Source of the DNA: a virus
Taxonomy: Duplodnaviria; Caudoviricetes
Virus record (IMG/VR): IMGVR_UViG_3300049783_001292
Coordinates: 1 to 56,799 of that record
DNA: 56,799 bases
Reading direction: 5' to 3' (one strand)
Made by a program: the position numbers and the translations under genes. A model generated the notes under the pieces. That model saw only the letters and a list, made by a program, of their open reading frames with translations, was not told the DNA's origin and ran no database searches. Below, piece by piece: positions 1 to 56,623 of this stretch (within the stretch, counting starts at the first letter, position 1; the number at the start of each line of letters is the position of its first letter).

Positions 1-105
1 ATGTAGTTACAGTGTAGTTGAGGTGCGTTTTATATGAAAAAACCCTTTAAAAACAAGCGCTTTTAAAGGGTTTTGTGTGGTGGAGCGGGGGGGAATCGAA
101 CCCCC
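1..105. repeat. Left att direct repeat; 78-105 is the tmRNA 3'-end core
   Basis: 1-105 is identical to 56624-56728 and includes TGGTGGAGCGGGGGGGAATCGAACCCCC. Confidence 0.95.
37..74 (-). terminator. Intrinsic terminator downstream of the tmRNA 3' fragment (second copy at 56660-56697)
   Basis: AAAACCCTTTAAAA / TTTTAAAGGGTTTT inverted repeat with A/T tails. Confidence 0.8.
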
Positions 106-143
106 CAGCTAAACCTCTACAGCCCCCTGTTTATGGCAATCTG

Positions 144-1334
144 TTATTTCGAGTGCCAGATCGGTGCCATATCGTTCGCTTTTTCCTTTTCTGTTTTCTC
201 GTATGCTTCGATAAAACTGCCGTAATGTCGGAAGATCATTTCCGTATTTTTATGGCCCATCCAGTTCGCTATTTTCCATAAATGCACTTCTTGTGAAATA
301 TGCTTAGTAGCGAAAGTGTGGCGCAATTGATAAGGGTAACGATAGCGAACACCTGCCGCTTTTAATATTCTTGTCTGCCATCTATGCTTTCTGAAACTTT
401 CATGTTCCCACTGTTTGCCCTGATCATTAAGGAAAACATATTCGCTATGTAGGAAGGTTAATTCTTTTTGTCGCTTGAGTGCGGTCAGTGCTTCATCGTT
501 TAACGGAATAAAACGTTTATTTTTGGTCTTGGTCGGTTTGGTGATGCCTTGAGAATATGACTCAACAATTTTCACTTGCTCATGTACAAAGTCTACATCA
601 ACCCATTTTAGCGCGGGCCATTCAGCGGAGCGAACACCAGTATTAACCCAAAATTGTATGATGTTTAATTCTGCCGGTTTACAGCGCTGATAAATTTCCT
701 CTAGCTCTGTTGGGGTGAATACGTCAATATCATCATCATCTTCGTTACGCGCATCAACAATTTTTTGAGTAATGTATTGATTAGTGTTTACCTGGCGTGA
801 TGGATTGAATTGTATTACCTGGTCAGTCACGGCTTGATCTAAAGCAAGATCAAGCACACTTTTCTGATTAGTGATGGTTTTTTGCTTAACGGTTTTGTTT
901 CGCTCTTTGATCCAATTGGCTATTTCTTTCGGTGTGATCTTGGCAACCAAGAGATCATGCAAAGGTTTAAGGGCGTTTTTGCCCTTGATATAACCTTCGA
1001 TAGTGGTGTGGGAAAGTTTACGAACCGTTTCGCCCTGGTGGATAAGCTCTTCTATATAAGAGAGGACGGTTGTTTTACTTGTTGCTACGCCGAATACTTT
1101 AAGCTTTGGCGAGTTAGGGAAGTATTCAGCATAGTGAAAGGTTTCGCGTTCTATGTTGTTTCTGATTTCACCAGCCAAGTTACCGGCCCAGGCAATGTTG
1201 GCCTTTGTAACATCAAGGGCTAATATCTCACGACACCTAACCCCTTTGTAGAAAAAATCAACCCGTATTGATTGACTCTTGGCATTCTCACGAACCGTTA
1301 TGCCGCTCGGAAGCCTCCCCCATTTCTTACCCAT
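144..1334 (-). CDS. int: Tyrosine integrase with N-terminal arm-binding domain
   Basis: TGVRSAE (catalytic Arg), YQLRHTFAT, MGH and terminal HY motifs; adjacent to att. Confidence 0.96.
   Translation of the reverse strand: MGKKWGRLPSGITVRENAKSQSIRVDFFYKGVRCREILALDVTKANIAWAGNLAGEIRNNIERETFHYAEYFPNSPKLKVFGVATSKTTVLSYIEELIHQGETVRKLSHTTIEGYIKGKNALKPLHDLLVAKITPKEIANWIKERNKTVKQKTITNQKSVLDLALDQAVTDQVIQFNPSRQVNTNQYITQKIVDARNEDDDDIDVFTPTELEEIYQRCKPAELNIIQFWVNTGVRSAEWPALKWVDVDFVHEQVKIVESYSQGITKPTKTKNKRFIPLNDEALTALKRQKELTFLHSEYVFLNDQGKQWEHESFRKHRWQTRILKAAGVRYRYPYQLRHTFATKHISQEVHLWKIANWMGHKNTEMIFRHYGSFIEAYEKTEKEKANDMAPIWHSK
149..170. promoter_or_regulatory. Integrase arm-type sites (left arm, inside the int 3' end)
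   Basis: GTGCCAG-ATCGGTGCCAT matches the 11-bp ATCGGTGCCAG repeats at the right end. Confidence 0.7.
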
Positions 1335-3545: not shown

Positions 3546-4685
3546 TTACGCTGCAGCTAATACTTCTCTTGATCCGTTAAGGCCAGGCTCAGAAACTACG
3601 TCGTTACCCTCAAGTTCTTCAACAATACGGGCGGCTCGGTTATAGCCAATTCTGAACTTGCGCTGAATGCTTGAGATTGAAACGCGACGAGTTTCAGTGA
3701 CGAACTCGACAACTTCAGGGTAAAGGAAGTCTGGTGTTTCTTCATTGGCACTCTCGACGCTATCGACGGCTACTGGTTGGTTAATAGCGCTAGTTTCATC
3801 GTCACTGTTTTGGTCAAAAAAGTTCTTAAGGGCTTCGCAATGATTAACGATTATCTCTAGTTCAACGGCTTCTTCATGCAAGAATAGATCTTCAGCATCA
3901 CCAGATCCGCCATCCTCTTCAATTTCATAGCTGGTTGATATTTGCTTGATCTTGAACTTCTCAGTTAGCGTGAATGCGACACCATCTTTAGATAAGTTCA
4001 CTTGTTTGATGCTGTAACCTTCATCGAGCAATGTTTTTACCTGGTCAAGCGGGTAGTCACCTTTAAAGCGCACAACGTCTTTATTTGTATTAGCTAAAAC
4101 GAGCAAGTCACCTGTGCTAAAACCGGCGAACTGGATACCTTCAAAACGCGCCTGTTCGTCATTCAATGATTCAATCATGTTAGTTGTTAATGAGTTTGAT
4201 ATGCCTGAGCAATGAAGCGTTGCTGTCTCTAACGAGCCAAGCACCTTGATTAAGAATGAAAGCGCCATTTGTGCGTATGCCTCTTTAGCATCGACAATTA
4301 GCTTCTGGCTTTTTGTGTGATAATAAAGGCTGAAAAAATTTGTTTCTGGTAATACTTTGGCGCAATACTCGGCAAAAACCTCTTCTGCAACTTTTTGTTG
4401 AAGTTCTTCTATCTGAATATCAATAAGATCTTCAATAAGTGTTGCTTCGACTCTTCGGGCCACTTCTTGCGCTAGCGATGCTTTAGGAAGTTTTTTCCAG
4501 CTAAAAACAAAGTTGATTTTATAACCATTTTCAAGCTTTACGATGGGGTCGTTAGGGTTAAGACCAAGTTTTGCTGATTGACTTTCAAGTAAAGGTGAGA
4601 ACATTAAACCTTCTTCTTGTGTGATTTTTTCTTCAATTACTGCGATTACCGGTAACTCTGCTTGAAACACTTGGATATTTTTCAT
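3546..4685 (-). CDS. rdgC: RdgC-like recombination-associated protein fused to a C-terminal FtsK gamma domain
   Basis: MKNIQVF and KKLPKASL RdgC-like motifs; C-terminus LYPEVVEFV...[24 protein letters not shown]...GSREVL is a canonical FtsK-gamma. Confidence 0.85.
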
Positions 4686-4799: not shown

Positions 4800-6590
4800 T
4801 TAAGCTGCGTCGCTTTCTTGCTCTTCAAGATAAGCATGCTGATTAATAATGTTTAGTAAGTCGGTAAACTCAGAGTTACGAACTCCGTACTCTTCTTTCC
4901 AAAAACTAAGTTGACGCAGCATTTCTGATCTGCCGCTTTGAGTTGTGCTGGAAAATCGCGTTGATAGCCGTTGCTTGACGGGTGATTCTTCTTTAATTGG
5001 GGCGGCTTCCTTGCCTACGCTAGTTTGCGAATCTTGTTGTGCGGTTAGTCGCTGCTCAGTTGCTTTCGCTGAACCTTCGTTATTAACAGCGTGATTTCCA
5101 ATTGAGGGGGCTTGTTCTGCTTGTTGTCGTGCAATAACTGCTTGTTGCTGTTGCGCGATAGCATCTTGCTCTGCCTGGGCTTTAGCACGTTCTTCACTGC
5201 GAATGCGCTGTTCTTCTGCCGCGGCTCTTGCTTGCACTTCACGTTCAGCTTTTTCCTGGGCTGCTTGCTCCATGCGTAATTGTTCTACACGTTTGCGCTC
5301 AGTTTCAGCCTGATCATGCTCTGTTATGCGCATTTTTATTAAGTTGATTAAATCTTCAGTAGGCTTTAACACTAACTGAGCAAAGTCGTTGAATAAAAAT
5401 TTATGGCTTGACGCATGCGCTGTTAAAGCGGCAATGTTCGCATCAATTAATTTACCGGCCTCGGTTAGCTTTTCTGTTGCTTGCGATAATTCGGTATCAA
5501 CCGCAGTTTTTAGTGAGTCAACTTTACTTTTGCCTTTCATTACGCTGTCAAAATCAGGGCGGATAGTAATTACTTGAAAGCCAACTTTACCGTTAACCGC
5601 TGAAACGCGCTGATCCCACTCAGTTTGAGCGTTGGCTTTTAAGTTTTCTTTTAGTTCAAGTTTTCGCGCTTTAATCTCTTTTTCACCAGCACTAATCGTT
5701 TTCTGTAAAACGCTATCAAGTTCAGCCGCCACCAAGTCAAAGTCAGCCAGGCTTGCAAAGCCGTTTTTAACATTTTCGCGTTTTACTTTTAATTCTGCCC
5801 TGGCTAATTTGTAATTTTTAATACGAGCATCTTTATCAATAAAATCCTGATCACTTTCAAGAACAATGCTTTTCTCAAAGTTCGCTTTATCTTTAACGGC
5901 CATAAGGACTTGCTGTAAATTGGTGGTGATTACAGAACCGGCTACATCACACTGAATCGCCGGTAGGTTTTCCACTTCATTAGCAACTAGTTTTTCTGCT
6001 TTTGCTACCACTTCATGATTTGCTAAGTCGATGGCGAACTGCTTCCAACCGGCGATTAACTCTGCTCGACGCTCTGGTACTGACTCGTAGTACATTGAAG
6101 CAAAGTTTCCTGTGGTGCCGTCACTGGTGATAAATAATACCTTTTCAGCGCCGGACACTAGCAATTGTTGCTCTAACTGCCAGTAGTGAGCCGGACCTAA
6201 GACGTTATTTCTTACGTTTTCAGCAAGCGTTTTGTTAAAAAGCTTATGCTCAAAAACAACGTCTTCCATCATTGTTAAGCCATCAAATGACGCGCCGATC
6301 TTCTCGTTTTCTAACAAGCCAGTGACAGGGTAAAAATCACCCACACCATCATCAAGCATGCCCTCAGCGATAGGTCTTGCCATTTCCTCGGTTGCGTGAC
6401 CTTTATCAAACAGCTTTTGTTGCATTGAGGATACGGGCTTAGATATGCCTGTTTTCTTCATATCAAGCAATTCGTTACGGCTCATGTACGGAGAATCACC
6501 CTTCATAGCTGCTGCTTCACTAGCCATGAAGTTTTCTAAGCGAAATTCTAGCCACTGTTGACTGCCTTGCTTTAGCGATAAGATGATCAT
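4800..6590 (-). CDS. YqaJ/lambda-Exo-family exonuclease with long coiled-coil C-terminus
   Basis: QGSQQWLEFR, ASEAAA, GASFDGL, FEHK and YWQLEQQLLV motifs. Confidence 0.9.
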   Translation of the reverse strand: MIILSLKQGSQQWLEFRLENFMASEAAAMKGDSPYMSRNELLDMKKTGISKPVSSMQQKLFDKGHATEEMARPIAEGMLDDGVGDFYPVTGLLENEKIGASFDGLTMMEDVVFEHKLFNKTLAENVRNNVLGPAHYWQLEQQLLVSGAEKVLFITSDGTTGNFASMYYESVPERRAELIAGWKQFAIDLANHEVVAKAEKLVANEVENLPAIQCDVAGSVITTNLQQVLMAVKDKANFEKSIVLESDQDFIDKDARIKNYKLARAELKVKRENVKNGFASLADFDLVAAELDSVLQKTISAGEKEIKARKLELKENLKANAQTEWDQRVSAVNGKVGFQVITIRPDFDSVMKGKSKVDSLKTAVDTELSQATEKLTEAGKLIDANIAALTAHASSHKFLFNDFAQLVLKPTEDLINLIKMRITEHDQAETERKRVEQLRMEQAAQEKAEREVQARAAAEEQRIRSEERAKAQAEQDAIAQQQQAVIARQQAEQAPSIGNHAVNNEGSAKATEQRLTAQQDSQTSVGKEAAPIKEESPVKQRLSTRFSSTTQSGRSEMLRQLSFWKEEYGVRNSEFTDLLNIINQHAYLEEQESDAA

Positions 6591-12860: not shown

Positions 12861-13069
12861 ATAAAATGATTTCAATAAAAGAACTTTCATACGAACAAAA
12901 TTTCTATTGGCAGGGTACGCAGTATCGACAAGTGATAAGACCTAAACGTCCGAGAGGCCCATTTAAAATTTATGCGTGTGACGTAACCCTTAGTAATTAC
13001 AACGCCGTGGAAATGCCATCGGGCCGGAAAGTTAAGCCAGTGCTAAGGATCGTTAATGAAGCAAACTAA
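12857..13069 (+). CDS. Hypothetical protein
   Basis: ATGA overlap with the previous gene. Confidence 0.6.
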   Translation: MNKMISIKELSYEQNFYWQGTQYRQVIRPKRPRGPFKIYACDVTLSNYNAVEMPSGRKVKPVLRIVNEAN

Positions 13070-13349
13070 AATAACAAAAAGCGCTAGAGATATGGATTGC
13101 CAAATCAGATTACCATTTATTTGTAATTTTGACTCTACGACTACTGTTTTTGCTCACGTTGGTATCGATAGTGGTATGGGCGGCAAGTCGAGTGACATTG
13201 AAGGGACTTATTCTTGCTCTAGTTGTCACGATGAAATTGACGGTAGGACAATGAAAATGGCAGACCGTCAAGAAGTTAAGTTGTTTGCTTATGAAGGGGC
13301 TATGCGAACTAGAGAAATATTGACTTGTATGGAGCTAATAAAAACCTAA
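13056..13349 (+). CDS. DUF1364/YbcO-like zinc-binding nuclease-domain protein
   Basis: ARDMDCQIRLPFIC...TTVFAH...CSSCHDEIDGR. Confidence 0.85.
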   Translation: MKQTKITKSARDMDCQIRLPFICNFDSTTTVFAHVGIDSGMGGKSSDIEGTYSCSSCHDEIDGRTMKMADRQEVKLFAYEGAMRTREILTCMELIKT

Positions 13350-13736: not shown

Positions 13737-14141
13737 ATGGAATCTATCAGTATTGACGATTATCGGGCTATGACAGCGCCAAAGGCCACGAACAAGGCCA
13801 AAGCGAAAGAGCAAGCTCGAAAATTAGCGGCGCTGGTAGAGGTTAATTTAATTGATTTACCTGGTTACACCAAAGAGCATATTTTTCACCCCACACGAAA
13901 ATGGCGCTTTGATTATGCCTGGTTAGATTTGAAAGTTGCGTTAGAGATTCACGGTGGGGTTTTTACCAATGGTAGGCACACTCGCGGTAAAGGTTTTAGT
14001 GAAGACAAAGTAAAGATGAATAGCGCCCAGCTACTAGGGTGGATAGTTATTGAGGCTACAACAGCACAAGTGAAAGATGGGCAAATGCTCACATGGATTA
14101 AAACTGCAATCAACACTAGGAATAAATGTGCATCCAATTAA
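13737..14141 (+). CDS. PD-(D/E)xK endonuclease (DUF559/Vsr-like; putative resolvase)
   Basis: EHIFHPTRKWRFDYAW...ALEIHGG...D.VKMNSAQLLGW. Confidence 0.85.
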   Translation: MESISIDDYRAMTAPKATNKAKAKEQARKLAALVEVNLIDLPGYTKEHIFHPTRKWRFDYAWLDLKVALEIHGGVFTNGRHTRGKGFSEDKVKMNSAQLLGWIVIEATTAQVKDGQMLTWIKTAINTRNKCASN

Positions 14142-14685
14142 GTTACTAGCAAAAATGACACCAAAAACTTTAAACCTGGGCGCAATTGGCGGTGGTACAT
14201 CACTTGATACAATAGATTGGCGGGATGCGGCTCACTCATTAGTGGGGTTAAACAAAGATGCGTATAATTGGGCACTGTTTAGATTCGCAGGGCATGACGA
14301 TAAAGAGAGATCTATCGTTAGAGTGTTAACAATGACAGTAACGCTATTGATAAAGATTAAACGATTTAAAATAAAGCCTGATACGTTAGATGGAATCGTT
14401 AGAGCGGCAATGCTTGAGTTCACTCAACCGGTCTGTGTTGAATGCTCAGGTAGTGGGTGGTCAGTTGATTCAAGCATACAAAAGGAATGCTCACACTGTA
14501 ACGGCAGGGGCAAGAAAGCCATATCAAAAAGAGAAAGATGTAAGGTTATCGGTATAAGCAATAGAAGTTATACAAACAATCATGATGAAGTCTCAAAAGA
14601 GTTGATGAATATTATTTCAACCTGGGAACAACAGATTATTAAAAACGTTAATGAAAAAATGGGCGAAGACGAGGAAGTAGCATGA
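14128..14685 (+). CDS. Late antiterminator Q (zinc-finger, lambda-type); GTG start likely
   Basis: CVECSGSG...CSHCNGRG zinc finger; upstream of the late promoter and lysis genes. Confidence 0.8.
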   Translation: MHPIKLLAKMTPKTLNLGAIGGGTSLDTIDWRDAAHSLVGLNKDAYNWALFRFAGHDDKERSIVRVLTMTVTLLIKIKRFKIKPDTLDGIVRAAMLEFTQPVCVECSGSGWSVDSSIQKECSHCNGRGKKAISKRERCKVIGISNRSYTNNHDEVSKELMNIISTWEQQIIKNVNEKMGEDEEVA

Positions 14686-15158
14686 TTAAATCAACAGAAG
14701 AACAACTATTAGAGAAAATCAACGTATTCGCGGATAGTGCTGTGATATGTAGGCAATTAGATAGTTTAGCGAAAGAGCTAACAGAAGAAATCGATTACTC
14801 ACCAGAAAAAACTTACTGGATAAAGGAAGCTCAAGAAAATCTTTACGGTATGTTTGAGTTGTTAATGGATATAAAAAAACAACACCTACTTGATAACAAC
14901 GATAACAACGATAAGAGCGATGAAGAGCATAAAATATTCACCATAGCTAATTTGAATTTATCTGAAGAAGCTACGGATGCGTTAAAAGTTGCTGATCTTC
15001 ACTGTGTATTGGCGCTATTTAACAGCACTGAAGTTGAAGTGCTTAAGGCTTTTAATTACAGTAACATAAGAAACAGAAAGATAATCTTTGAAGAAATAAA
15101 GTATGCGCTTGAAAATTTAGGGTTATTTATTGGCTGTGACTTACAATATAAAGCATAA
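14682..15158 (+). CDS. Protein with a novel helical N-domain plus an RNAP alpha-CTD-like domain (paralog 1)
   Basis: IANLNLSEEATDALKVADLHCVLALFNSTEVEVLK...EEIKYALENLGL resembles alpha-CTD; N-domain closely similar to that of 54446-55084. Confidence 0.7.
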   Translation: MIKSTEEQLLEKINVFADSAVICRQLDSLAKELTEEIDYSPEKTYWIKEAQENLYGMFELLMDIKKQHLLDNNDNNDKSDEEHKIFTIANLNLSEEATDALKVADLHCVLALFNSTEVEVLKAFNYSNIRNRKIIFEEIKYALENLGLFIGCDLQYKA

Positions 15159-15262: not shown

Positions 15263-15541
15263 ATGTTTGATAATCCAATAGTGCAAGAAGTTACAAAATT
15301 AAAGCCAGGCCAAGCAATAAAGTTCAATGGAAGGGAGTTAGATGCCGAAGTACCTAGATTTTATCATAATGACTCAACGTTCACTTCAGCGGATCGTGTG
15401 CTTGAAAATATAATAGGCGCTTCTTATGAGTATTATTACGAAGAAAACTTAATGAGTCCTGGCCGCGATGTAACATTTTACAGATTAAAAGAGCCGTTAC
15501 GTGATGGCCGTAGATGTTACGTTTCTCCGGATAGAAGGTGA
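15263..15541 (+). CDS. Hypothetical protein
   Basis: AAGGTG SD; ORF within the operon. Confidence 0.65.
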   Translation: MFDNPIVQEVTKLKPGQAIKFNGRELDAEVPRFYHNDSTFTSADRVLENIIGASYEYYYEENLMSPGRDVTFYRLKEPLRDGRRCYVSPDRR

Positions 15542-15903
15542 TTGCCACCAGAGAACAGCTAAAGCAGTGGGAAGATGAAAGGGCCGTAAAGCTTATGGTT
15601 GGCACTATGGATACAAATAGGCCGATTGTTTACATTGAGACTACGCCGTTTAGCGCGAGAATATCAGAAAAATTACGTGGTATTGCCTATGTAATCATTG
15701 TTGATAAACTTCCTGATTATTGCAGCCAAGTAGACGAACTGGTCGATTACGCCACTGTGTTTGATTCTCATGCTGTGCTACAAAAGTCAAGGCTAGGGGT
15801 TGATATGATTAACTGTTCGAGCAATAACCAGACAAAAAAGCGGTCACATGGTTGGTATCGTCAATTCGATAAAAGCAGTAAGAAGCGAAATTTAAGGGGT
15901 TAA
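15538..15903 (+). CDS. Hypothetical protein
   Basis: GTGA overlap with the previous gene. Confidence 0.6.
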   Translation: MIATREQLKQWEDERAVKLMVGTMDTNRPIVYIETTPFSARISEKLRGIAYVIIVDKLPDYCSQVDELVDYATVFDSHAVLQKSRLGVDMINCSSNNQTKKRSHGWYRQFDKSSKKRNLRG

Positions 15904-15904
15904 T

Positions 15905-16306
15905 ATGAAGCGTAGAGTAATTGAAACAGTGAGCAATCATTATTGCGATAAAACCCAACATGAGGCCTTGGAAAGTGTAAGGCTAGATTACCCTGATATT
16001 GATTGGGTTTACTACGGCTGGAGTTCACATAACGACTCTTATGTATTTGATGCTGTGACCGATGTAAGCAACATACCTGAAGGGCTAGAATCTTATGAAA
16101 CAGACGAAGATGCAGTTACAAGGGTAATAGAGGCCAAGTCCACAGGAAAGGCCTGCAAAGACTGCAGGTATTTCAATGGCGTTGATACATGCAATCACAT
16201 TGCAAATACACAAGTAGTTGAATCTACATTTCACAGCCCAAACCCTTATAGAAAATTAAAGGTTTCACCAAATCATATGTGTGACTACTTTGAGTTAAGA
16301 GGTTAA
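15905..16306 (+). CDS. Hypothetical protein with C-terminal CKDCRYF...C...C motif
   Basis: ORF with SD; Cys motif. Confidence 0.65.
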   Translation: MKRRVIETVSNHYCDKTQHEALESVRLDYPDIDWVYYGWSSHNDSYVFDAVTDVSNIPEGLESYETDEDAVTRVIEAKSTGKACKDCRYFNGVDTCNHIANTQVVESTFHSPNPYRKLKVSPNHMCDYFELRG

Positions 16307-16307
16307 T

Positions 16308-16586
16308 ATGAAAGAATATTTAGTCCTCGACATAGTGACAAGAATAAACGAAGTGGCGGGTAAAGACGGGGTTCGCGCAATGGTTAATTACACGCCAGGT
16401 ATATTCAGAAGCATACCAAACTCAATGACGATTTGGGACGTAGAGATAGAGCACAAGGGCTATCATCTAGTTGAACGATTTAATAATTCTATGAATATAA
16501 CTGATAGTGACGTTGACCTTGTGGCTAAAAATTTATTGGGTGACTTATTTCGTGACTACTTCAGTGCAAAGATTAGGTATAAATAA
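16308..16586 (+). CDS. Hypothetical protein
   Basis: GAGG SD. Confidence 0.6.
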   Translation: MKEYLVLDIVTRINEVAGKDGVRAMVNYTPGIFRSIPNSMTIWDVEIEHKGYHLVERFNNSMNITDSDVDLVAKNLLGDLFRDYFSAKIRYK

Positions 16587-16606: not shown

Positions 16607-16636
16607 TTGCACACCTCCCGTTATTAGTGTTATATT
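16607..16636 (+). promoter_or_regulatory. Late promoter, pR'-like (TTGCAC-18-TATATT, extended -10 TG)
   Basis: Consensus match upstream of terminators and lysis genes. Confidence 0.65.
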
Positions 16637-16649
16637 TCCCATCTTGCAG

Positions 16650-16680
16650 AAATCCGCTCATTTATTGAAGCGGATTTTTT
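16650..16680 (+). terminator. tR'-like intrinsic terminator
   Basis: AATCCGCT...AGCGGATT followed by a T-run. Confidence 0.75.
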
Positions 16681-16781
16681 GCGTTCAGGGCTAAAGTTAT
16701 TCATTGAGAATATCACAGCATAGAATTAGCGACTCTTTAACCAATACCTTAGCTCACATACATAGCCTTACAACCTTGCTT

Positions 16782-16813
16782 GCCTCACCTTAACCGGTGG
16801 GGCTTTTTTATTT
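16782..16813 (+). terminator. Second late-leader terminator
   Basis: GCCTCACC-TTAACC-GGTGGGGC-TTTTTT. Confidence 0.75.
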
Positions 16814-33702: not shown

Positions 33703-36700
33703 AAATCAATTTCCTGGTATCCCAAGAAACCCAAAAACAGATGTAGTACAAAGCACGATAACGGAAAACGTTGAGCTGTTAACGGGGGCGCGAGGCAAAA
33801 ACAGGGCGCTATTGGTTAGTGACTTAGTGAACCTTGACGATATGAAACGCAATTCGTTGATTCAGTCGGCTAAAGGAGGCAATAATGGCGGCTTGCCTAT
33901 TGTGCCAGGTGGAGGCATTGAGCGCCCTCATGCGCCGGTCAACTTACAAGGCACTGGTGGTTTTACTTTTATCGCCTTAACGTGGAATGCGCCTAATTAT
34001 AAAGGCCATGCTTATGCAGAAATATTTAGATCTGACACTAACATTTTTGCTGATGCGATAAGGGTAGCCACGGAAGTCACCGATATTTTCAGTGATAGCG
34101 TTAACATGGGTTCACAGTATTATTATTGGGTTCGCTTTGTTAACAAGGCCGATATGATTGGTCCTACTCAGGGGGCTAATGGCTTATACGTTGAAACCCA
34201 GCGATCAGCCGAACAGATACTTGCGGAAATTGGCGGCCAAATTGAGGATAGTCATTTAGGCGAATTTTTATCGAGTAAAATAGGAAAAATACCAGATTTA
34301 TCGTCGGATATGGAAACCTTTAAGGCCGAAATACCTCAGTTAATTGCTGATGTTGGTCAGTTCAAAGTAGACATACCCGCGCTAAGCTTTGATATTGGCG
34401 AGTTAAAGGCCGACATACCCGCGCTAAGTTTTGATGTTGGCGAACTAAAGGTTGATGTTCCTAACATTAAGGACGCAGTTTTTGGCGTTGATGGGTTGGT
34501 CGATACGGTCAAGCAAGACTCAGAAAACGCCAAGCAAACCGCTAATAATGCTAAAGAAACGGCTGAAATTATTTTAGCTGACAATGAGTCGTTAGCGCGA
34601 AGATTGATAGATTCGGCCCTGGTGGGTGATTTAAACTGGAGAAACAATGCGGTTAGCCTTATATCGCTAGAAGCATCGATTGATGGTGTTAAAGCTACGG
34701 TAGCAAGCGAGTTCTACACCCGAACTGAAGCAAACTCTGCCATTGCCGCCGCTTCAACCACTATCCAAACGATGATAGAAGAGAACGGGCTTGCGTTATC
34801 AGGCGATATAGATTCCACTTACTACACCAAAACAACAACCGACGAGGCGATAGCGCTTGCTGGCTTAACCCTTAAAGCAAGTATTGAAGATCCTGAAGGG
34901 GGTAGCGTAGGCGCGACACTCTTTAATGACTACTACACAAAAGTAGGGGCTAACACTGCCACTGCCGCTGCCGGTGACACGCTAAAAGCACAGATTGAAG
35001 ATCCAACCGGCACAAGCTTAGGGGCAACCTTATTCACTAATTATTACACGCAAGCAAACGCTAATGAGGCCATTGCACAAGCAGATACGGCGTTAAAGGC
35101 TGCCATTGAAGATCCAAGTGGTACAAGTATTGGCGCTGAACTGGTGAACAATTACCGTACCACTGCCGACTCAGACACCGCAATCAGTGAAGCAAACTCA
35201 CTGCTAAGAGCGTCTATTGAAAGTCTAGACGGGGGTAGTATTGGCGCAGAGCTTGTGACTAACTACCGCACATCAGCCGGTACTGACACCGCTATCAGTG
35301 AAGCAAGCGACCTCTTAAAGGCTACGATTGAAAATCCCAACGGCGATAGTATCGGTGCCGAGCTATTTAATCACTATGAAACCAAGGCCGACAGTAACGA
35401 GTCGGTTGCCAAGTCTATTTTTGAACTAAGCAGCACGTTTGATAAAGCGACCGAGGCAACGATAGATAACGCTATTGCTAACGACATTCAAAGTGACCGG
35501 CAAAGGGTGGTTGCCGCGAACCTTATTCAGCAACAGAAAACATTTGCTAACGAAAACCAAGCACTAACAGAAACATTGCAAGTGTTAGAATCTCAATTTA
35601 ATGATAGCAATGCCAGTGTGTTTAATTTGTCGCAAACTATGTCCACCAATATCCAAGCGACAGCTAAGAAAGTGTTATTGCTGACCAGTAACATAGGCAA
35701 CGTTAGTGCTGACGTTTATCATAATTTTTATACTAAGGCTGATGCCAATGAAGCAACGGCAACAGCCGATACCGCGCTAAGGGCGGCAATAGAAAATCCA
35801 ACCGGTGATAGTATTGGCGCTGATCTGCAAACGAATTATTACACAAAGACCACCGCTGACAGTGCTATTTCTGAAGCAACGACACAAGTAAAATCCACGA
35901 TTGAAGATCCCACCGGCTCAAGTATTGGCGCTGACCTAGTGGAAAATTACTACACTAAAGTTACTGCTGATACTGCTATATCAAAGGCTGACACCGCACT
36001 AAAAGCCGCAATAGAAAACCCAGTAGGTGATAGCATTGGCGCTGACTTACAGTTAAATTATTACACTAAAACCACTGCTGATGAAGCCACAGCCGAAGCG
36101 AAAACCCAGCTAAAGGCCGCCATTGAAGATCCAAATGGCACAAGTATTGGCGCTGACGTTTATAATAACTTCTACACTAAAACTACCGCTGACGAAGCTA
36201 TCGCAACAGCCGACACCGCATTGAAAACAGCCATTGAAGACCCCACTGGCTCAAGTATTGGCGCTGATCTGCAAACGAACTATTATACTAAAACCACTGC
36301 TGATGAAGCCACGGCTGAAGCAACAACTCAGCTTAAAGCCGCCATTGAAGACCCCATTGGCACAAGTATCGGTGCTGACTTGGTGGAAAACTTTTACACT
36401 AAAACTACCGCTGACGAAGCTATCGCAACAGCCGACACCGCATTGAAAGCAGCCATTGAAGATCCAGTTGGTTCAAGCATTGGCGCTGATCTGCAAACAA
36501 ACTATTACACCAAAGTTACCGCCGACGAAGCCACAGCCGAAGCGACAAAACAACTCAAGGCCGCCATTGAAGATGTTGATGGTAGTAGCATTGGTGCTGA
36601 TCTGGTGGAAAATTTCTATACAAAAACCACCGCCGACGAAGCCACCGCCAAGGCAACGAAGCAACTTAAAGCGGAGGTCGAAGATCCTGATGGCAACAGT

Positions 36701-38725
36701 GTAGGGGCTGAACTTTACAACCGATATGAGACTAAAGCGGATAACGAGAAGTCAACGGCACAAGCGGTATTTGCATTAAGCAGCACTTTTGGCAAATCCA
36801 TTGAAGCCACACTAGATAACGCTTTGGCAAACGATCTAGAAAGCGATAGGCGGCGAGTCATTTCGGCTGACTTAGTTAAGCAGCAAAAGACATTCGCTGA
36901 TGAAACACAAGCGTTAACTCAAAGCTTATTGCAACTCAAGTCACAGTTTAATGACAGTAACGCGCGTGTATTTAGTTTGACACAAACTATGGCTAACAGC
37001 GTCCAGGCAACGGCTAAAAAAATACTTCTGATCAGCAGTGAGCTAGGCAACGTTAGCGCCGATGTTTACCAAAATTTCTATACTAAAACTACGGCTGATG
37101 AAGCTATCGCTGAAGCCGATACCGCACTAAAGACTGAAATGGAAGATCCTGAAGGTTCAAGCATTGGTGCTGATCTGCAGTTAAATTACTACACTAAAGT
37201 CACGGCCAATGAAGCGGTGGCTGAATCGAGCAAGTTACTTAAGGCTGAAATAGAAAACATTGATGGTGATTCTATAGGCGCTGACCTTTACAACAACCAC
37301 TATACTAAAGTCACAGCTAATGAAGCGGTGGCCGAGACAAATAAGATACTTAAGGCTGAAATAGAAGATGCTGATGGCACAAGTCTTGGCGCTTCACTTC
37401 AAGCGCTAGGAAAAACCGTTGCTAATAATGATGAACAATGGGCAATGTGGGGGGTTAAAACCACTGTCAACGAGTTAACTAGTTCGTTTGGCTTGGTGAA
37501 TGACGGGGTTGATCCTATCTTTGCTATCAAAGGTGCTAAGTTTGCGATTATCACAAGCCAAGACCCAGATAACTTAACACCAGTGTTTGCGGTGGTTGAC
37601 GGTAAAACGGTGATGAATGAAGCGGTAATAGACAGTGCTTTTATTCAGTCACTTGTTACGGATGATTTATTGTCTAATCGCGTGACGGTAGGCTCAGTGC
37701 TGAAAACACCCTCTATTAATTATGATCCTACCCTTGGGCGCAGTCAAAATTTCTCAGTAGATCCCAATGGCAACATGCAAGCCAAAAGCGCCGTTTTAGA
37801 AAGTGTGGTTATCAAGGACTCGCTAGGTAATATTGTCATGAGTTCGACCGGCGCTATTCCATCAACCAGAGTTACAGGACTTGGAGGGTTGGCTTTACTG
37901 GATGCGCTTGGCTATGATTCACTGAGTGGCAGACCTACGCTTGGCGCCTTTGCTGCGCTAGATTCGCTTGGCTACGATTCACTGAGTGGAAAGCCTACGC
38001 TTGGTAGCTTGGCCTCGCAAAACTCTCTCGGCTATAATTCACTAACCGGTAAGCCGACACTTGGATCGCTAGCCGCATTAAGTTCGCTAGCCTATGACAG
38101 CGTGACGGGCAAGCCAACTCTAGGGCCATTTGCGGGTTTAGCTAAATTACTGTCAACCAATGTCAGCACCTATATAGAATCTGGCGCCATTGGTAGCGCA
38201 CAAATAAACCAAGCCTATATTGCTGAATTGTTTGGCAATAACGCGTCTTTTGCAGGGACGGTTTATGCGGAGAATATAGATGGTGATGTGGTCGATGTGG
38301 AGACTTATAGCTATCCAAGCACAAGGTCGATAACAACAAGCGAAACGTTTACCTTGTTTAGTGGTTCTGTGGCTGCTGCTGCATTTGGTCGCAAGCTAAC
38401 CTTTGGCGCTATTCCGCTTCATGCGGTCCTAGATCCGACCTCAAATGATACAGCGACATTGACAGTCACATTAAAATACTATCGAGGTTCCTCACTAATT
38501 TATACGTCACCTAGCCTCACGTTTCTTCATGAGGATGCAGGGGAGGTCAAGAGTAGTTTAGCTTCCCATCCTGTTGTTATTGCCATTGCAAGCTCCGCAT
38601 CAGCTACGAGTTTCAATGTAAAGTGTGCGGTTATCAGGGGGTCAAGCCACTACAGTCACCCCAAACTAAACCAATCACAATCTTGCATGGTTAGTTTATT
38701 TAAAGCTGGGGGTGCGCTGTCTTAA
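33689..38725 (+). CDS. Long tail fiber/host-specificity protein with FN3-like N-terminal part, internal repeats and DUF1983-like region
   Basis: YYYWVRFVN; about 17 repeats of 37 aa; FAVVDGKTVMNEAVI. Confidence 0.85.
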   Translation: MKRNKNQFPGIPRNPKTDVVQSTITENVELLTGARGKNRALLVSDLVNLDDMKRNSLIQSAKGGNNGGLPIVPGGGIERPHAPVNLQGTGGFTFIALTWNAPNYKGHAYAEIFRSDTNIFADAIRVATEVTDIFSDSVNMGSQYYYWVRFVNKADMIGPTQGANGLYVETQRSAEQILAEIGGQIEDSHLGEFLSSKIGKIPDLSSDMETFKAEIPQLIADVGQFKVDIPALSFDIGELKADIPALSFDVGELKVDVPNIKDAVFGVDGLVDTVKQDSENAKQTANNAKETAEIILADNESLARRLIDSALVGDLNWRNNAVSLISLEASIDGVKATVASEFYTRTEANSAIAAASTTIQTMIEENGLALSGDIDSTYYTKTTTDEAIALAGLTLKASIEDPEGGSVGATLFNDYYTKVGANTATAAAGDTLKAQIEDPTGTSLGATLFTNYYTQANANEAIAQADTALKAAIEDPSGTSIGAELVNNYRTTADSDTAISEANSLLRASIESLDGGSIGAELVTNYRTSAGTDTAISEASDLLKATIENPNGDSIGAELFNHYETKADSNESVAKSIFELSSTFDKATEATIDNAIANDIQSDRQRVVAANLIQQQKTFANENQALTETLQVLESQFNDSNASVFNLSQTMSTNIQATAKKVLLLTSNIGNVSADVYHNFYTKADANEATATADTALRAAIENPTGDSIGADLQTNYYTKTTADSAISEATTQVKSTIEDPTGSSIGADLVENYYTKVTADTAISKADTALKAAIENPVGDSIGADLQLNYYTKTTADEATAEAKTQLKAAIEDPNGTSIGADVYNNFYTKTTADEAIATADTALKTAIEDPTGSSIGADLQTNYYTKTTADEATAEATTQLKAAIEDPIGTSIGADLVENFYTKTTADEAIATADTALKAAIEDPVGSSIGADLQTNYYTKVTADEATAEATKQLKAAIEDVDGSSIGADLVENFYTKTTADEATAKATKQLKAEVEDPDGNSVGAELYNRYETKADNEKSTAQAVFALSSTFGKSIEATLDNALANDLESDRRRVISADLVKQQKTFADETQALTQSLLQLKSQFNDSNARVFSLTQTMANSVQATAKKILLISSELGNVSADVYQNFYTKTTADEAIAEADTALKTEMEDPEGSSIGADLQLNYYTKVTANEAVAESSKLLKAEIENIDGDSIGADLYNNHYTKVTANEAVAETNKILKAEIEDADGTSLGASLQALGKTVANNDEQWAMWGVKTTVNELTSSFGLVNDGVDPIFAIKGAKFAIITSQDPDNLTPVFAVVDGKTVMNEAVIDSAFIQSLVTDDLLSNRVTVGSVLKTPSINYDPTLGRSQNFSVDPNGNMQAKSAVLESVVIKDSLGNIVMSSTGAIPSTRVTGLGGLALLDALGYDSLSGRPTLGAFAALDSLGYDSLSGKPTLGSLASQNSLGYNSLTGKPTLGSLAALSSLAYDSVTGKPTLGPFAGLAKLLSTNVSTYIESGAIGSAQINQAYIAELFGNNASFAGTVYAENIDGDVVDVETYSYPSTRSITTSETFTLFSGSVAAAAFGRKLTFGAIPLHAVLDPTSNDTATLTVTLKYYRGSSLIYTSPSLTFLHEDAGEVKSSLASHPVVIAIASSASATSFNVKCAVIRGSSHYSHPKLNQSQSCMVSLFKAGGALS
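34880..37400 (+). repeat. 111-bp (37-aa) coding tandem repeats interrupted by two duplicated ~115-aa blocks
   Basis: IEDPxGxSIGADLxxNYYTKTTADEAxAxAxxxLKAA units. Confidence 0.9.
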
Positions 38726-42631: not shown

Positions 42632-45600
42632 ATGACAGATCTTAACAAGTACGCCAAAGACTCAGGCTATTTTGACCAGGTAAAACCAGAAGATGATCGC
42701 TACGAATTCACCAAAGGCGTTACTTCCGCTTTAAGCAGTACGGTATCAGGCGGTAAGGCGTTGGTTGGTGCGGTTACTGGTGATGAAAACTTACAGTTAC
42801 GTTCGCTTGATGATATGCGCCAAAACTCGACAGATAACGCCGGTAAAGTGGGCCGCATTGAGGATATTGAAGGGGTTGGAGATTTTACCGACTGGCTATC
42901 TTATAACCTTGGTTCGGGTACCGCTTCAATTGCGACTATGGTGGCCGGTGGTGGTTTGGGCGGCTTGGCTCTAAAGGGGGCTGCCAAAGGCGCTTTAGTT
43001 AATGCCGGTAAAACATTAGGGGCAACAAGTACAGGTTTTGCGCCTAACTATGGTGAATCATTACAAAGCGCCTACGGCACAACAGGTGAAATCAAGAATC
43101 AAGCGGCGCTTGCGTCTGCCAGTATCAAAACCGCATTAGATTTTATTGTCCCTGCAAAATTATTAAAAGCTGGTATCGGCAAAGAAGCCTCTAAAGAATA
43201 TTCTGAGATTGCAAAGCAGAAGATGATTAATGACAAAGGCTTTGTTACCTGGGCGAAAGAAGCGCTTAAAACAGGTAAGACTGAAGCCTTTACTGAGGGC
43301 TTGCAAACTTACACCGATCAGGTGATGAATAACATACTAACAGAAGGAGATAATCCTCTTGCTGTTCGTAGTGGTTCGGAAATTTTTAACGCTATGGCTG
43401 CCGGTGGTGCCGGTTCTATGGGTATTGGTGCTTATAGTGGTTATCAACAAAATAGAAATGCTGAAGCTTTACGCAATCAATCCAGTGATGTTAATGGCCA
43501 GGTCGATGATTTATGGGAGCTTGCTCAAACCGATGAAGTAGCAAGCAAGCGCGTTAATCAATGGCAGCAAAAGCGCTCTGACGTTGCTAAAACAGGGGTG
43601 CGTGATCTAATTGCTCAAGGTGCTTCACCGGAAGAAGCCAACGCCGAAATGAGAAAATCTTTAATTCTTTCGGCTAAAAAACAAGGTATGTCAGATTTAA
43701 ATGCCATTAGCAGTGCTGACAATGCGTTAACCATGACTGAAGTTGAGATCATGCAAGACAACGCACCGGAGTTTTTTGAAGAACTGAACGGTAGTGAAGC
43801 GTCGGTTGACTATGATGTGCCAACCGCCGCAAGAAATGCCGGAGCTAAAAACGACTTAGAAGCGGGTAAATTTGGTGAGGCGCTAGAGTCTGGTGAACCG
43901 CTAACAATCCCTAATCGAGAAGCGCCTAAAGGCAAAGAGAACGCTGACTATGACGTTCCAGCCGCCGCGAGAAATGCGGGTGCTAAAAATAATGTAGAAG
44001 CGGGTAAGTTTGGTGATTGGATAACAAGCCCTTTGCAAGAGTCATTAGGCACAATGAAGGATCAAACACCGGCTGATATGGTGGGCGAGGCGAGTAGCAA
44101 TACGGGTTATACCCCGCAAGACAGGACAGTGCTTGAAGGTGATGTACTTTCAAAAGAGCAAAGTAGCGAACTCGTTAATCAACGCACCTATACGGGTATT
44201 AATGGTGACTTCATTGAAGGGGAGTCAACGGCGGCAAAAGGTAAGTTTCCTACCGAGCAAGAAGTAAATCAACGACAAGGCCGCGATAAAGCTAAGGCTG
44301 ATTTTTCAGAACAACCCGCACAAGTGACCGATAAAAACATTGTGTATGGCCAAGATAATACGCGAGAAGTTGACGGTAAAGTTGCACAAGAAAAAATGGT
44401 TGATGGCATTAAAAATCAACCCAAGCAAATAACTGACAAGAATATAATTTTTGCTAAAGATACGGATGAATTAGGTAAAGTACACGTTAAAGCCAATGGC
44501 AAACCGTTTAAAAATGAGCGTCTACTTAAAATATCAAGAGGCTATAAAGAAGCGGTTCGTCAAAAAGAACCCGTTGAAGTGATCGCCCATGAAGGTGGGT
44601 TAGCTTGGCGTTATCAGCCGAAGAGTGAAAAATCATCAGAAGCGACCGCACCTATCTCTGGTCCTAAAGCAATCGACGAGGCCGCGCACGAAGCCGCCAC
44701 TTCTCCCATGAATGATCTAGCTGAGCCTACCATTGCTCAGGCGGAAGCCAATAACTACAAGTTAGGCCGAATAGTACATAGTGGCATTAAAATCGGTATT
44801 GAAAACCCGCAAGGCAGCTACCGCAAAGGTATTGATGGTGACGGCAAAAAGTGGTCCAATAAAATCAATCATCATTATGGTGACGTTACCGGCTCAAAAG
44901 GCGCAGACGGTGACGCACTTGATGTATTTGTTAACCCTAATACGGAAAGTAGCACGAATGCTTACATCGTTGACCAAGTAGAGCCGAAAACAGGCGCTTT
45001 TGATGAACATAAAATCATGCTTGGTTTTGACTCTAAAGATGATGCCGAAAAAGCATACTTATCTAATTATGATAAAGGCTGGAAGGGTGTTGGGGCCATT
45101 AGTGAAGTGCCTATTGAAACATTTAAAGGTTGGGTGGAAAAAGGCAACACTATTCAAGCTTATAAAAAGCCCGATACACCCCAAGAACAAACACCACAAG
45201 AAACGGCCTCACAAAAGGCCGTTGTCGTATCTGAAGCTAAAGAAACCGATGTTAACCTTACCAGTGAGGGTGACATACCTCAAGAGACTGATATGTTTGG
45301 AGATAGCGCACCGGTAGAGCCTAAATCTCAATCCAAAATTAAAATTGGAAAAATTGATACCGACGATTGGGCTGAACACCTTGAAGATGCCGATGGTGAT
45401 ATTGAGCAAGCTAAACAGGACTATAACGACAGTTCACTTGAAGCTATTGACTATGGCATTAATGAGATCGACAGTATAGACAGCCCTAGCCAGGTTGCAT
45501 TAGCTGCGGATGAAATACAAAAATACATCGATGCGGGGGTAACTGGTTATGATGAAATCGCCGTTAATCGAATATTAAGAGCAAATAAAAAGCTAAATAA

Positions 45601-54301: not shown

Positions 54302-54386
54302 TGGTGGCGAGGGTGCTTGCTATGACTAGCACACCCCACATTATCCAAAGCGCATATGTTAGACGTTGTAAGTATTTTCTTTTCAT
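54288..54386 (-). CDS. 32-aa single-TM peptide MKRKYLQRLTYALWIMWGVLVIASTLATIIYS, not in the ORF track
   Basis: Translated by hand; TTGCAT-16-TATGAT promoter ends 6 nt before the ATG. Confidence 0.55.
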   Translation of the reverse strand: MKRKYLQRLTYALWIMWGVLVIASTLATIIYS

Positions 54387-54445
54387 ACGTCTATCATAGG
54401 CTTTATATCGAAAAATGCAAAACACTAAACCTATGGGGATATTCA

Positions 54446-55084
54446 CTACATCGACAAGCCTTGCTCTGCTAGTTTATCGACTATCTCTGTCATCATCATT
54501 TTAGTTACCACTTTGTCTTGCAGCAGTGCTAGCATGCCATATCCTTGCAAATGATCTAAGGTCCGAATACTCCTTCCCTGTAAAGCCATGCTAGTTTCAG
54601 GTGTAAGTTTGAGAGTGCTAGTATATACAGTGTCAGGGCCACCACTGACTAACTTTAGTCCATAACTAGATAATAATGCCTCTACGTCGGTAAGCGATGA
54701 TTTACCGAACCCCTCAATCGTTAATAGTTCGAGACTAGAACATAATAACAAGTGGCGTAGTGTGAAAATTCCTTGTTTAACCAGGTGGTTTTTAGTTCTT
54801 GCTGTCAAGTCTAAATCTTCAACAGGCATACTTTCGTCGAAGCCACTAGCGTTAGCTGGTTCTATTTTGCTTTCACTTACAAGGCTTTGTTTTTTAATGT
54901 CCATCAAAAGCTCGAACATGCCGTTCATATTATCAATGGCTTCTTTTATCCAGTAGGTTTTTTCGCTTGAGTAATCTAAGTCCTCAGTTAATTCCTTAGC
55001 TAGTTCGTCAAGCGATTTACAGATAACACCATTATCCGCAAATTTTGGTATTTCATTTAACAGATCAGGTAATTGCTTTTTCAT
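54446..55084 (-). CDS. Novel N-domain plus RNAP alpha-CTD-like domain(s) (paralog 2; start MKKQLP)
   Basis: PVEDLDLTARTKNHL...IFTLRHLL...LLTIEGFGKSSLTDV is a clear alpha-CTD; AAGGA SD. Confidence 0.85.
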   Translation of the reverse strand: MKKQLPDLLNEIPKFADNGVICKSLDELAKELTEDLDYSSEKTYWIKEAIDNMNGMFELLMDIKKQSLVSESKIEPANASGFDESMPVEDLDLTARTKNHLVKQGIFTLRHLLLCSSLELLTIEGFGKSSLTDVEALLSSYGLKLVSGGPDTVYTSTLKLTPETSMALQGRSIRTLDHLQGYGMLALLQDKVVTKMMMTEIVDKLAEQGLSM

Positions 55085-55094
55085 TTTTATTTCC

Positions 55095-56111: not shown

Positions 56112-56130
56112 GGGAACCCTTTTTGATAAT

Positions 56131-56194
56131 ATTACTATGTAATCAACTCTACATGATTAATATGTAATCATCAATATAAATTACTATGTAATCA
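56131..56194. promoter_or_regulatory. Three palindromic operators ATTA(C/A)TATGTAATC between divergent genes
   Basis: Copies at 56131, 56156 and 56180. Confidence 0.75.
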
Positions 56195-56246
56195 GTATTT
56201 AATTTGATAAAGTATTTGTAATGGTTCAAAAGTAGAGATTAACACA

Positions 56247-56465
56247 TTGGTAAGCGATGAACGCAAGAGGCAAATAGCCGCCGCTGTAAAAGCACATAGA
56301 GAAAAGCAGAAAAAGGAGTCTGGTAGAAAACAGGTTCCTTTAATGCTGACTGATATTGATCGCGAAAATATGTCTACTATAAAGGAAAGGGAGGTCAGTG
56401 TTAAAAATCAGGGTGAAGCTGTTAGTGCGGCTCTCTCTGAATACGTGAAAAAGTACGACAGCTAA
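56247..56465 (+). CDS. Small DNA-binding protein, probably ribbon-helix-helix
   Basis: Basic N-terminal helix, then KQVPLML strand plus two helices (NQGEAVSAAL). Confidence 0.65.
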   Translation: MVSDERKRQIAAAVKAHREKQKKESGRKQVPLMLTDIDRENMSTIKEREVSVKNQGEAVSAALSEYVKKYDS

Positions 56466-56488
56466 AACCCGAAGTTTACCCTGAAATC

Positions 56489-56618
56489 ATCGGTGCCAGA
56501 TCGGTGCCAGATCGGTGCCATAAAATTTTTTGCCCTGTATGTATGATCATGATGATCATACGATCAGTTTTGGCCCTTTCAGCCCTTTAAAAATGTATCG
56601 GTGCCAGATCGGTGCCAG
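56489..56618. promoter_or_regulatory. Integrase arm-type sites (right arm): ATCGGTGCCAG x3 and x2
   Basis: 11-bp tandem units at 56489-56521 and 56597-56618. Confidence 0.75.
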
Positions 56619-56623
56619 ATTAA

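Follow-up and report, generated by a model that had tools for sequence, protein, structure and literature searches.

Two paralogous proteins pairing a helical hairpin with an alpha-CTD-like domain, one with and one without the DNA-contact residues, in a complete marine prophage

What could a temperate phage gain from carrying two small proteins that end in a copy of a domain of the host RNA polymerase? This question is raised by the IMG/VR virus record IMGVR_UViG_3300049783_001292 (Caudoviricetes), which was analysed over its whole length of 56,799 bases (hereafter, the window) and which encodes two such proteins, here called A and B. An original prediction, made from the DNA letters alone, had described them as paralogues that join an N-terminal domain to mimics of the C-terminal domain of the RNA polymerase alpha subunit (alpha-CTD), and had proposed them as the best candidate for an undescribed transcription-hijack or anti-phage system. 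Our analysis suggests that A and B are old paralogous "mini-alpha" proteins, each composed of a helical hairpin, an acidic flexible linker, and an alpha-CTD-fold domain, and, judging by their sequences, they probably tamper with host transcription. The two genes and their parts are as follows.

14682-15158, plus strand: gene A (P0001), 158 amino acids (aa), isoelectric point (pI) 4.6; N-terminal hairpin, acidic linker, and alpha-CTD-fold domain with the DNA-contact residues lost
14682-14897, plus strand: N-terminal domain (N-domain) of A, residues 1-72; profile match 115 bits
14937-15155, plus strand: alpha-CTD-fold domain of A, residues 86-158; from the residue map and Foldseek
54446-55084, minus strand: gene B (P0002), 212 aa, pI 4.8; N-terminal hairpin, linker, canonical alpha-CTD, and degenerate repeat
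54875-55084, minus strand: N-domain of B, residues 1-70; profile match 110 bits
54647-54829, minus strand: first alpha-CTD of B (CTD1), residues 86-146; from Pfam, Foldseek, and the residue map
54449-54646, minus strand: degenerate second alpha-CTD-like repeat of B, residues about 147-212; from the family CTD profile

The N-domain is common to both proteins. Residues 9-70 of A and 8-69 of B are identical at 44 of 62 positions (71%; BLASTP, E = 6e-29) and the similarity ends there, so that the shared domain, originally put at about 50 aa, covers 62 residues; its profile finds exactly two copies within the window, those of A and B. AlphaFold confidently predicts a two-helix hairpin, with two long antiparallel helices in A (6-35 and 41-77; predicted local distance difference test score, pLDDT, about 86-92 over residues 11-70) and helices 5-35 and 40-73 in B (pLDDT 91-97 over the same residues). 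No Pfam or PHROG family matched the N-domain, a scan of 10 N-domain sequences gave no family common to more than one member, and the ESM Atlas returned no usable match. In a set of 19 sequences, three polar hairpin positions (D17, Y44, and E48) never vary. Between A and B, the hairpin is identical at 45 of 72 protein positions, with a nucleotide identity of 67% and 28 of 62 third codon positions matching; a conserved protein with diverged third positions points to an old duplication and strong purifying selection on the hairpin. Derivation of the hairpin from the dimerisation helices of the alpha N-terminal domain (alpha-NTD) was considered and rejected as homology (hhalign 0.1% and hmmsearch -1.2 bits against E. 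coli RpoA residues 1-248); the NCBIfam rpoA alignments extend back into hairpin helix 2, and an analogy with those helices is possible. Since the hairpin shows no alpha-NTD homology, A and B are not polymerase subunits, and neither passes as RpoA, with NCBIfam rpoA scores of 27-59 bits against cut-offs of at least 228.

Regarding the C-terminal parts, both proteins end, according to the structure predictions, in a compact alpha-CTD fold with two helix-hairpin-helix (HhH) motifs. B exceeds the gathering cut-off of the Pfam model RNA_pol_A_CTD (PF03118; 23.8 bits) with 47.1 bits (E = 1.9e-12, residues 85-139; 43.3 bits in a six-frame search), whereas A stays under it with 18.6 bits (E = 0.0016; 19.4 bits in the six-frame search). 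The NCBIfam rpoA models match B at 5e-16 and A at 2.5e-6 (TIGR02027), and phmmer searches of the PDB connect B with alpha subunits at E-values down to 4.7e-8 and A with the B. subtilis alpha-CTD 3gfk at 7e-4. In the AlphaFold models, built on family alignments with a mean pLDDT of 81 for B and 83 for A, the N-domains and the linker-flanked CTDs alone are confident. Foldseek places residues 86-145 of B over solved alpha-CTDs (1z3e, 1lb2, 7vpd_S, 8y5t) with a TM-score (TMt) of 0.86-0.93 and a root-mean-square deviation (rmsd) of 0.6-0.9 Å. For the model of A, alpha-subunit chains take 48 of the 50 top ranks with a best E-value of only 9e-3, and free alpha-CTD chains fit with TMt 0.70-0.80 and rmsd 1.8-2.5 Å. 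The assignment of both C-terminal domains thus agrees with the original prediction, which had named the lack of an alpha-CTD fold in A as the finding that would count against it; the predicted model contains the fold. The degenerate second repeat that had been proposed for B also proved sound, as about residues 146-212 score 18.8 bits against the family CTD profile, a value that 0 of 1000 shuffles reach (best 11.3), with a poor AlphaFold model there (pLDDT 38-57 over 150-185). The linkers of A and B are acidic and flexible and span 12-15 residues. The CTD of A is identical to that of B at 10 of 74 positions and to the E. coli alpha-CTD at 23 of 76, and that of B to the E. coli domain at 26 of 73, which means that each CTD is closer to E. 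coli alpha-CTD than to the CTD of its paralogue.

The two proteins part most clearly at the residues with which alpha-CTD contacts DNA. E. coli RpoA residues 245-329 were aligned with all family CTDs, and the resulting map reads as follows; among the positions are residues of the 265, 261, and 287 determinants of alpha-CTD.

alpha R265: R in B CTD1 (LTARTKN); E in A (LSEEATD)
alpha N268: N in B CTD1; D in A
alpha C269: H in B CTD1; A in A
alpha G296: G in B CTD1; R in A, plus a 5-residue insert in the second hairpin
alpha K297: K in B CTD1; K in A
alpha K298: S in B CTD1; I in A
alpha S299: S in B CTD1; I in A
alpha D258/D259/E261: E/D/D in B CTD1, still acidic; A/N/N in A
alpha 285-291 (TEVELLK): SSLELLT in B CTD1; TEVEVLK in A
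alpha R265, N268, G296, K298, and S299 in repeat 2 of B: E, M, T, M, and M, with no G-K-x-S hairpin

Checked in this way against E. coli RpoA, the earlier statements that A has lost the Arg265 equivalent and that B keeps both the Arg and a hairpin reading GFGKSS were confirmed.

Whether this difference is a peculiarity of one phage can be judged from the relatives. An exhaustive profile search of 1.84 billion cluster representatives gave 92 matches at E <= 0.001. In 72 of them the best stretch starts from profile position 55 or later, so these are essentially alpha-CTD matches, many of them multi-copy alpha-CTD proteins (the 7 that were checked have 4-11 Pfam stretches each). Specifically, P0006, P0007, P0009-P0012, and P0015 are metagenomic proteins of 259-1031 aa built of 4-11 tandem RNA_pol_A_CTD domains; going by such matches, alpha-CTD is reused as a repeat module far from RpoA. 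The other 20 of the 92 matches include the N-domain. Two candidates stand outside the family count, namely P0027 (5409 aa, Thr/Ser-rich), whose match over 30 residues was judged spurious, and P0004, which looks like a chimeric contig product. Among the 18 N-domain representatives, 11 are fused to an alpha-CTD-like domain, 6 are standalone proteins of 70-80 aa bearing NCBI names from Pseudoalteromonas sp. S554 and PS1M3, and 1 has a C-terminal N-domain. The N-domain defines a rare new family found in marine phages and Pseudoalteromonas-type bacteria. A further homologue is WPJ21776 of Pseudoalteromonas phage vB_Pun_Y3 (147 aa, positions 5001-5444; hhalign 96.3%, E = 1.5e-9), which carries an insert of roughly 70 residues between the two conserved helices; the vB_Pun_Y3 record has no alpha-CTD (PF03118) match at E <= 1. 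Across 50,697 phage records, megablast and tblastn found nothing for the A region or B, and this domain-only protein was the sole sequence relative of the N-domain.

The fused proteins form two subfamilies, one corresponding to A and the other to B. The A-type consists of P0001, P0005 (90% identity), P0013, and P0014, all with the hairpin insert, and the B-type set of 8 sequences. Of the 8 B-type CTDs, 5 retain R265, 6 retain N268, and all 8 retain G296, whereas of the 4 A-type CTDs none has R265 or N268 and 1 has G296; E286, in turn, is present in all 4 A-type CTDs and in 2 of the 8 B-type ones. The loss of R265 and N268 throughout the A-type, set against their retention in most of the B-type, argues for a conserved subfamily split and not for a one-off or recent decay. 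In the hairpin, A is as close to B (45/72) as to its A-type orthologues (40/70 and 41/71), and A shares with the B-type a loop segment that P0013 and P0014 do not have. Such a pattern would be expected if both hairpins had to stay compatible with each other, which is not to say that it proves this.

Taking together domain architecture, predicted folds, residue pattern, location in separate transcription units, and membership of a family, we tentatively favour, at a little short of an even chance, a reading in which A and B form a transcription-modulating pair, dimeric B occupying UP-like DNA and A serving as an antagonist of B or as a titrator; oligomerisation, DNA binding, and a transcriptional effect are inferred. 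The hairpins would most likely pair into a four-helix bundle, a layout that resembles the RNA polymerase alpha dimer with its two tethered CTDs. B would be the DNA-competent form, with R265, N268, G296, and S299 in CTD1 together with the acidic 258/259/261 patch. These are the CTD surfaces by which alpha, in the polymerase, contacts sigma region 4 and, in A/T-rich UP elements, the minor groove. The solved alpha-CTD contact structures 3N97 and 1LB2 are among the best fold matches of B. A dimer of B may thus bind A/T-rich, UP-element-like DNA beside promoters, and might there compete with or substitute for the alpha-CTD of the polymerase itself. A would be the DNA-blind form (E, D, R, and I at the contact positions plus the hairpin insert), made from the early lytic operon alongside a Q-like protein. 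It could act in either of two ways: the near-identical hairpin could let it pair with B, thereby weakening B's grip on DNA, or it could titrate one of the proteins with which alpha-CTD is normally in contact, the helix-3 patch being kept.

The original prediction also suggested that A and B could heterodimerise through the shared domain. Complex prediction for the two hairpins gave interface scores (ipSAE) of 0.59, 0.61, and 0.59, against 0.00 in 3 controls including the best of them, with a partner pLDDT of at least 75 and a contact agreement of at least 92%. In the calibration, 58 of 80 solved complexes and 2 of 110 mismatches attained the mark, but only 7 of the 80 solved complexes, along with both mismatches, did so with a score of 0.60 or under, so that the prediction rates as weak support for the pairing; the heterodimer stands as a proposal that the models favour weakly. 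This is the first of several points that weigh against the favoured reading. The N-domain also occurs without alpha-CTD, as a standalone protein and in vB_Pun_Y3, so it might bind some target itself and not serve for pairing only. A and B are each acidic as a whole, with a net charge of -13 for A and -10 for B. In B, K298 is replaced by S and C269 by H, and R265 is absent from 3 of the 8 B-type relatives; by residue pattern, DNA binding by B is not assured. Finally, among the runs containing the right-end block with the B operon no RNA runs are listed, and scans of viral, genome, and metagenome contigs for the loci of relatives confirmed no locus.

The surroundings of A bear on when it would be made and on what it might touch.

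13056-13349: YbcO gene, in the rightward early region
14077-14685, plus strand: Q-like gene with a CxxC...CxxC zinc finger; its stop overlaps the start of A
16608-16636, plus strand: late-promoter-like site, 3' of A; consensus scan only
16782-16803, plus strand: terminator-like hairpin with a T-run; consensus scan only

The start of A is preceded by GAGGA 7 nucleotides (nt) 5' of the ATG and overlaps the stop of the Q-like gene by 4 nt (ATGA). The translational coupling of A to Q that had been proposed is therefore real as far as the overlap goes and weak as regards the identity of Q: the gene matches phrog_127, "anti-termination protein Q-like", only over residues 119-186 (E = 3.6e-6), its top PHROG match is a family of unknown function, and its match to DnaJ_CXXCXGXG is under the cut-off (E = 3.6e-4). 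Its position between YbcO and the lysis genes suits a lambdoid Q, and with these sequence matches it is weakly indicated as a Q antiterminator. The region 16608-16803 contains the sole late-promoter-like site that is followed by a terminator-like hairpin, and it lies 3' of A and of four small open reading frames (ORFs; 92, 121, 133, and 92 aa; 15263-16586, plus strand), none of which had a significant Pfam, PHROG, or PADLOC match. The arrangement is like PR'/tR' of lambda, a function suggested by consensus matches alone, and A, upstream of the late-promoter-like site, belongs to the early rightward operon.

The Q-like neighbour also brings in a different explanation, in which the N-domain is the working part that binds a host or phage protein, such as RNA polymerase or the Q-like neighbour itself, with alpha-CTD as an optional add-on. 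The standalone N-domain proteins speak for it (6 of 18 representatives, including those of Pseudoalteromonas sp.), as do the expanded vB_Pun_Y3 protein with no alpha-CTD and the invariance of the polar residues D17, Y44, and E48 in the 19 sequences. Additionally, a homologue of the Q-like/DnaJ-finger gene lies within one gene of the N-domain gene in both of the phages with readable context: in vB_Pun_Y3, the N-domain gene is one gene away from a zinc-finger gene annotated "DnaJ", on the opposite strand, which is 34% identical to the Q-like gene of the window over 61 aa, and these two are the only ones of 12 vB_Pun_Y3 genes compared that match the window. This context comprises two genomes only, however, and in one of them, vB_Pun_Y3, the two genes are read from different strands; a hairpin of helices that presents two hydrophobic faces suits simple self-association equally well, and the hairpin-hairpin prediction did pass the mark, if weakly. 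We regard this explanation as unlikely, though deserving of some weight.

B lies at the opposite end of the window, in a short block of minus-strand genes.

55095-56111, minus strand: 338-aa gene of PAPS (phosphoadenosine phosphosulfate)-reductase-like type, directly 5' of B; phrog_424 5.5e-23, PADLOC SspD 9.1e-8
54288-54446, minus strand: 52-aa hydrophobic ORF, whose GTG start overlaps the stop of B by 1 nt
56376-56404, minus strand: best promoter-like site 5' of the 338-aa/B operon, TTAACA-17-TATAGT, 10/12; consensus scan only

B starts at 55084, with AAGGAA 7 nt 5' of its ATG, and a longer frame from 55132 is disfavoured, the N-termini of homologues backing the shorter start. The 338-aa gene, whose stop lies 10 nt before B and which has no Pfam or NCBIfam match, probably shares one operon with B. 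The 52-aa ORF has no family match in the library scans, PADLOC included, and may not be a real gene. The description of A and B as an early-lytic copy and a separately regulated copy is upheld in that they belong to different transcription units, B being in the operon next to the right attachment site (attR) and on the opposite strand. The B block is transcribed inward from the attR side; in the circularised phage it would come downstream of int on the leftward early strand and hence be readable in the lysogen and in early lytic growth, so that it could be expressed at both stages.

Three exact copies of TATGTAATCA (56136-56194, spaced 24-25 nt) are found in the 135 nt that separate the 338-aa/B operon from a divergent 72-aa ORF (56247-56465), with an additional exact copy at 15688. 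In its layout the cluster looks like an operator array; across the window the motif has 9 matches at <=1 mismatch, a count that does not exceed chance, since 9 is also reached in 5 of 100 shuffles.

The operon partner of B suggests another alternative: B could be a generic (HhH)2 DNA-binding subunit that has nothing to do with RNA polymerase and works with the PAPS-reductase-like (DndC/SspD-like) enzyme encoded next to it, enzyme and B serving DNA modification or an accessory function of the prophage and A being a diverged paralogue with another role. The 10-nt spacing with B's own Shine-Dalgarno sequence, the matches of the 338-aa gene to phrog_424 and SspD, the reuse of alpha-CTD modules in many non-RpoA proteins, and the location of the operon at the end near the attachment site, a frequent site of accessory genes, are all compatible with it. 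B together with such an enzyme would have a likeness to IbrA/IbrB-type pairs. Against this, CTD1 of B keeps the acidic 258/259/261 patch of alpha besides the DNA contacts, and in the 2 records inspected of 28 phage records with a homologue of the 338-aa protein, no neighbour with an alpha-CTD-like domain or N-domain is annotated. On balance, this alternative seems improbable. The defence role envisaged in the original prediction, with the pair either acting as a decoy that draws ADP-ribosyltransferases away from R265 of alpha or forming part of an anti-phage (superinfection-exclusion) system, can be weighed with the same operon. B does have an Arg at 265 and may be expressed in the lysogen from its operon beside attR, and weak PADLOC matches exist for its neighbour (SspD, 9.1e-8) and for B itself (PglW, 0.0036). 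Against it, A, the copy beside Q, has no such Arg, and the search of the PADLOC 2.0 defence families gave no match for A and only PglW for B (E = 0.0036, 13.2 bits), which is not significant. We consider a defence role very remote. Binding of the pair to NusA, CRP, or Q, partners that the original prediction had also named, stays conjectural.

The record as a whole is a complete temperate lambdoid prophage of marine origin, integrated in ssrA with both attachment sites present and a CheckV completeness of 100%.

1-124: left attachment site (attL), the left copy of direct repeat D2, whose right copy at 56624-56747 is 94% identical over 124 nt
144-1334, minus strand: integrase, at the far (left) end of the prophage
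56624-56747: attR, the repeat of window 1-124, taking in the 3' end of the transfer-messenger RNA (tmRNA)
56701-56799, minus strand: 3' part of the tmRNA, Rfam RF00023, 71.1 bits, E = 9e-28, truncated on the 5' side

The insertion in ssrA follows from the terminal repeats and from the right copy running into the 3' part of the tmRNA. After the integrase, the minus strand encodes Dam, an RdgC/FtsK-gamma fusion, a YqaJ-type exonuclease, and RecT. The RdgC-family protein (3546-4685, minus strand), in the early-left operon, is an unusual fusion with a C-terminal FtsK gamma domain (1.1e-22), which reads the FtsK-orienting polar sequences (KOPS). Downstream of the early region come an endolysin and then a terminase, whose best relatives are from Vibrio phages (56% identity). 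The structural genes end with a 3889-aa ORF (42632-54301, plus strand), after which the short minus-strand block with B is situated just inside attR. A 1678-aa ORF contains diverged tandem repeats spaced 111 nt apart at 35019-37352, where a 300-nt reference matches 8 copies with 60-73% identity, as well as three 60-nt repeats at 37880-38059, and is likely a repetitive fibre- or tape-like protein. Tandem ATCGGTGCCAG units occur near both attachment repeats (56488-56520, 56596-56620, and about 150-170) and may be arm-type sites of the integrase. The right-end block is present in DNA runs labelled ice, seawater, and brine metagenome. In a comparison over 53500-56799, B is covered with 0-3 differences by contigs from 4 DNA runs of ice and seawater metagenomes, which show no bridge or absence bearing on function.

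The placement of the two genes in this prophage allows the favoured transcription-modulating pair to be extended to a switch linked to lysis and lysogeny, built from polymerase parts and controlling the host RNA polymerase by mimicry of its subunit domain; we put this forward as quite a long shot. In the lysogen, dimeric B on UP-element-like DNA would re-tune host or prophage promoters that depend on alpha-CTD. Upon induction, the early operon would make A, which would use the conserved hairpin to capture B into DNA-poor heteromers and present a DNA-blind alpha-CTD with the activator-contact patch TEVEVLK. The targets of B would thereby be released and activators that bind alpha-CTD titrated in one step. 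If true, this would be an undescribed way for a phage to control RNA polymerase, by mimicry instead of binding or modifying it.

How A and B relate to known systems is best seen from the bacterial RpoA CTD itself (about residues 249-329; PF03118; 1LB2, 3N97, 1Z3E), whose fold they share. As in RpoA, the CTD is carried on a flexible linker behind a domain that dimerises, in A and B probably. They differ from RpoA in having no alpha-NTD, in the 5-aa hairpin insert and lost contacts of A, and in the extra degenerate repeat of B. Closer in size are small phage alpha-CTD proteins already annotated in BFVD/UniProt, such as A0A6J5QDR9 and A0A6J7WD60 of uncultured Caudovirales and those of Rhodococcus phage Finch and Mycobacterium phage Mithril. 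With 110-140 aa and an N-terminal helical part followed by alpha-CTD, their plan is like that of A and B, and several align with the model of B over both halves (Foldseek, 128-134 columns, E = 4e-5 to 2e-4, 21-23% identity), although overall they are only 21-25% identical. Because such proteins exist and the module is widely reused outside RpoA, calling the pair the best candidate for an undescribed system was too strong. In full-text literature searches, no functional study of a phage-encoded alpha-CTD copy came up, and we know of no small phage alpha-CTD protein that is one of a paralogous DNA-competent and DNA-blind pair. Three things are new here: a rare family of hairpin domains, its division into DNA-competent and DNA-blind subfamilies, which is conserved, and the fact that one complete prophage carries a member of both subfamilies, with the two genes in different transcription units.

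In SinI/SinR of Bacillus subtilis and in Id/bHLH, an antagonist carries the helical pairing domain of its partner and is unable to bind DNA. By analogy, A and B likewise have a short helical pairing domain in common, one partner competent for DNA binding, and different transcription units; there is no homology, A keeps a folded and conserved DNA-blind domain, and the heteromer is weakly predicted. Phages are known to take control of the host RNA polymerase through binding or chemical modification. To encode a polymerase domain in free copies is a different tactic, and such genes are annotated in many uncultured phages. A and B offer a natural contrast in this respect, with the same pairing domain and an alpha-CTD in which the DNA contacts are kept in one protein and lost in the other, and since this contrast exists within one prophage, the role of a free alpha-CTD in the cell is directly testable with two small, soluble proteins. 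The S. aureus phage G1 protein gp67 reportedly blocks the use of alpha-CTD and UP elements. It is an example of a phage factor that acts on alpha-CTD function (PMC3694059). Like A and B as proposed here, it would alter promoter use that depends on alpha-CTD. The target of gp67 is sigma, and it has no relation to A and B in sequence or fold; A and B, for their part, carry copies of alpha-CTD itself.

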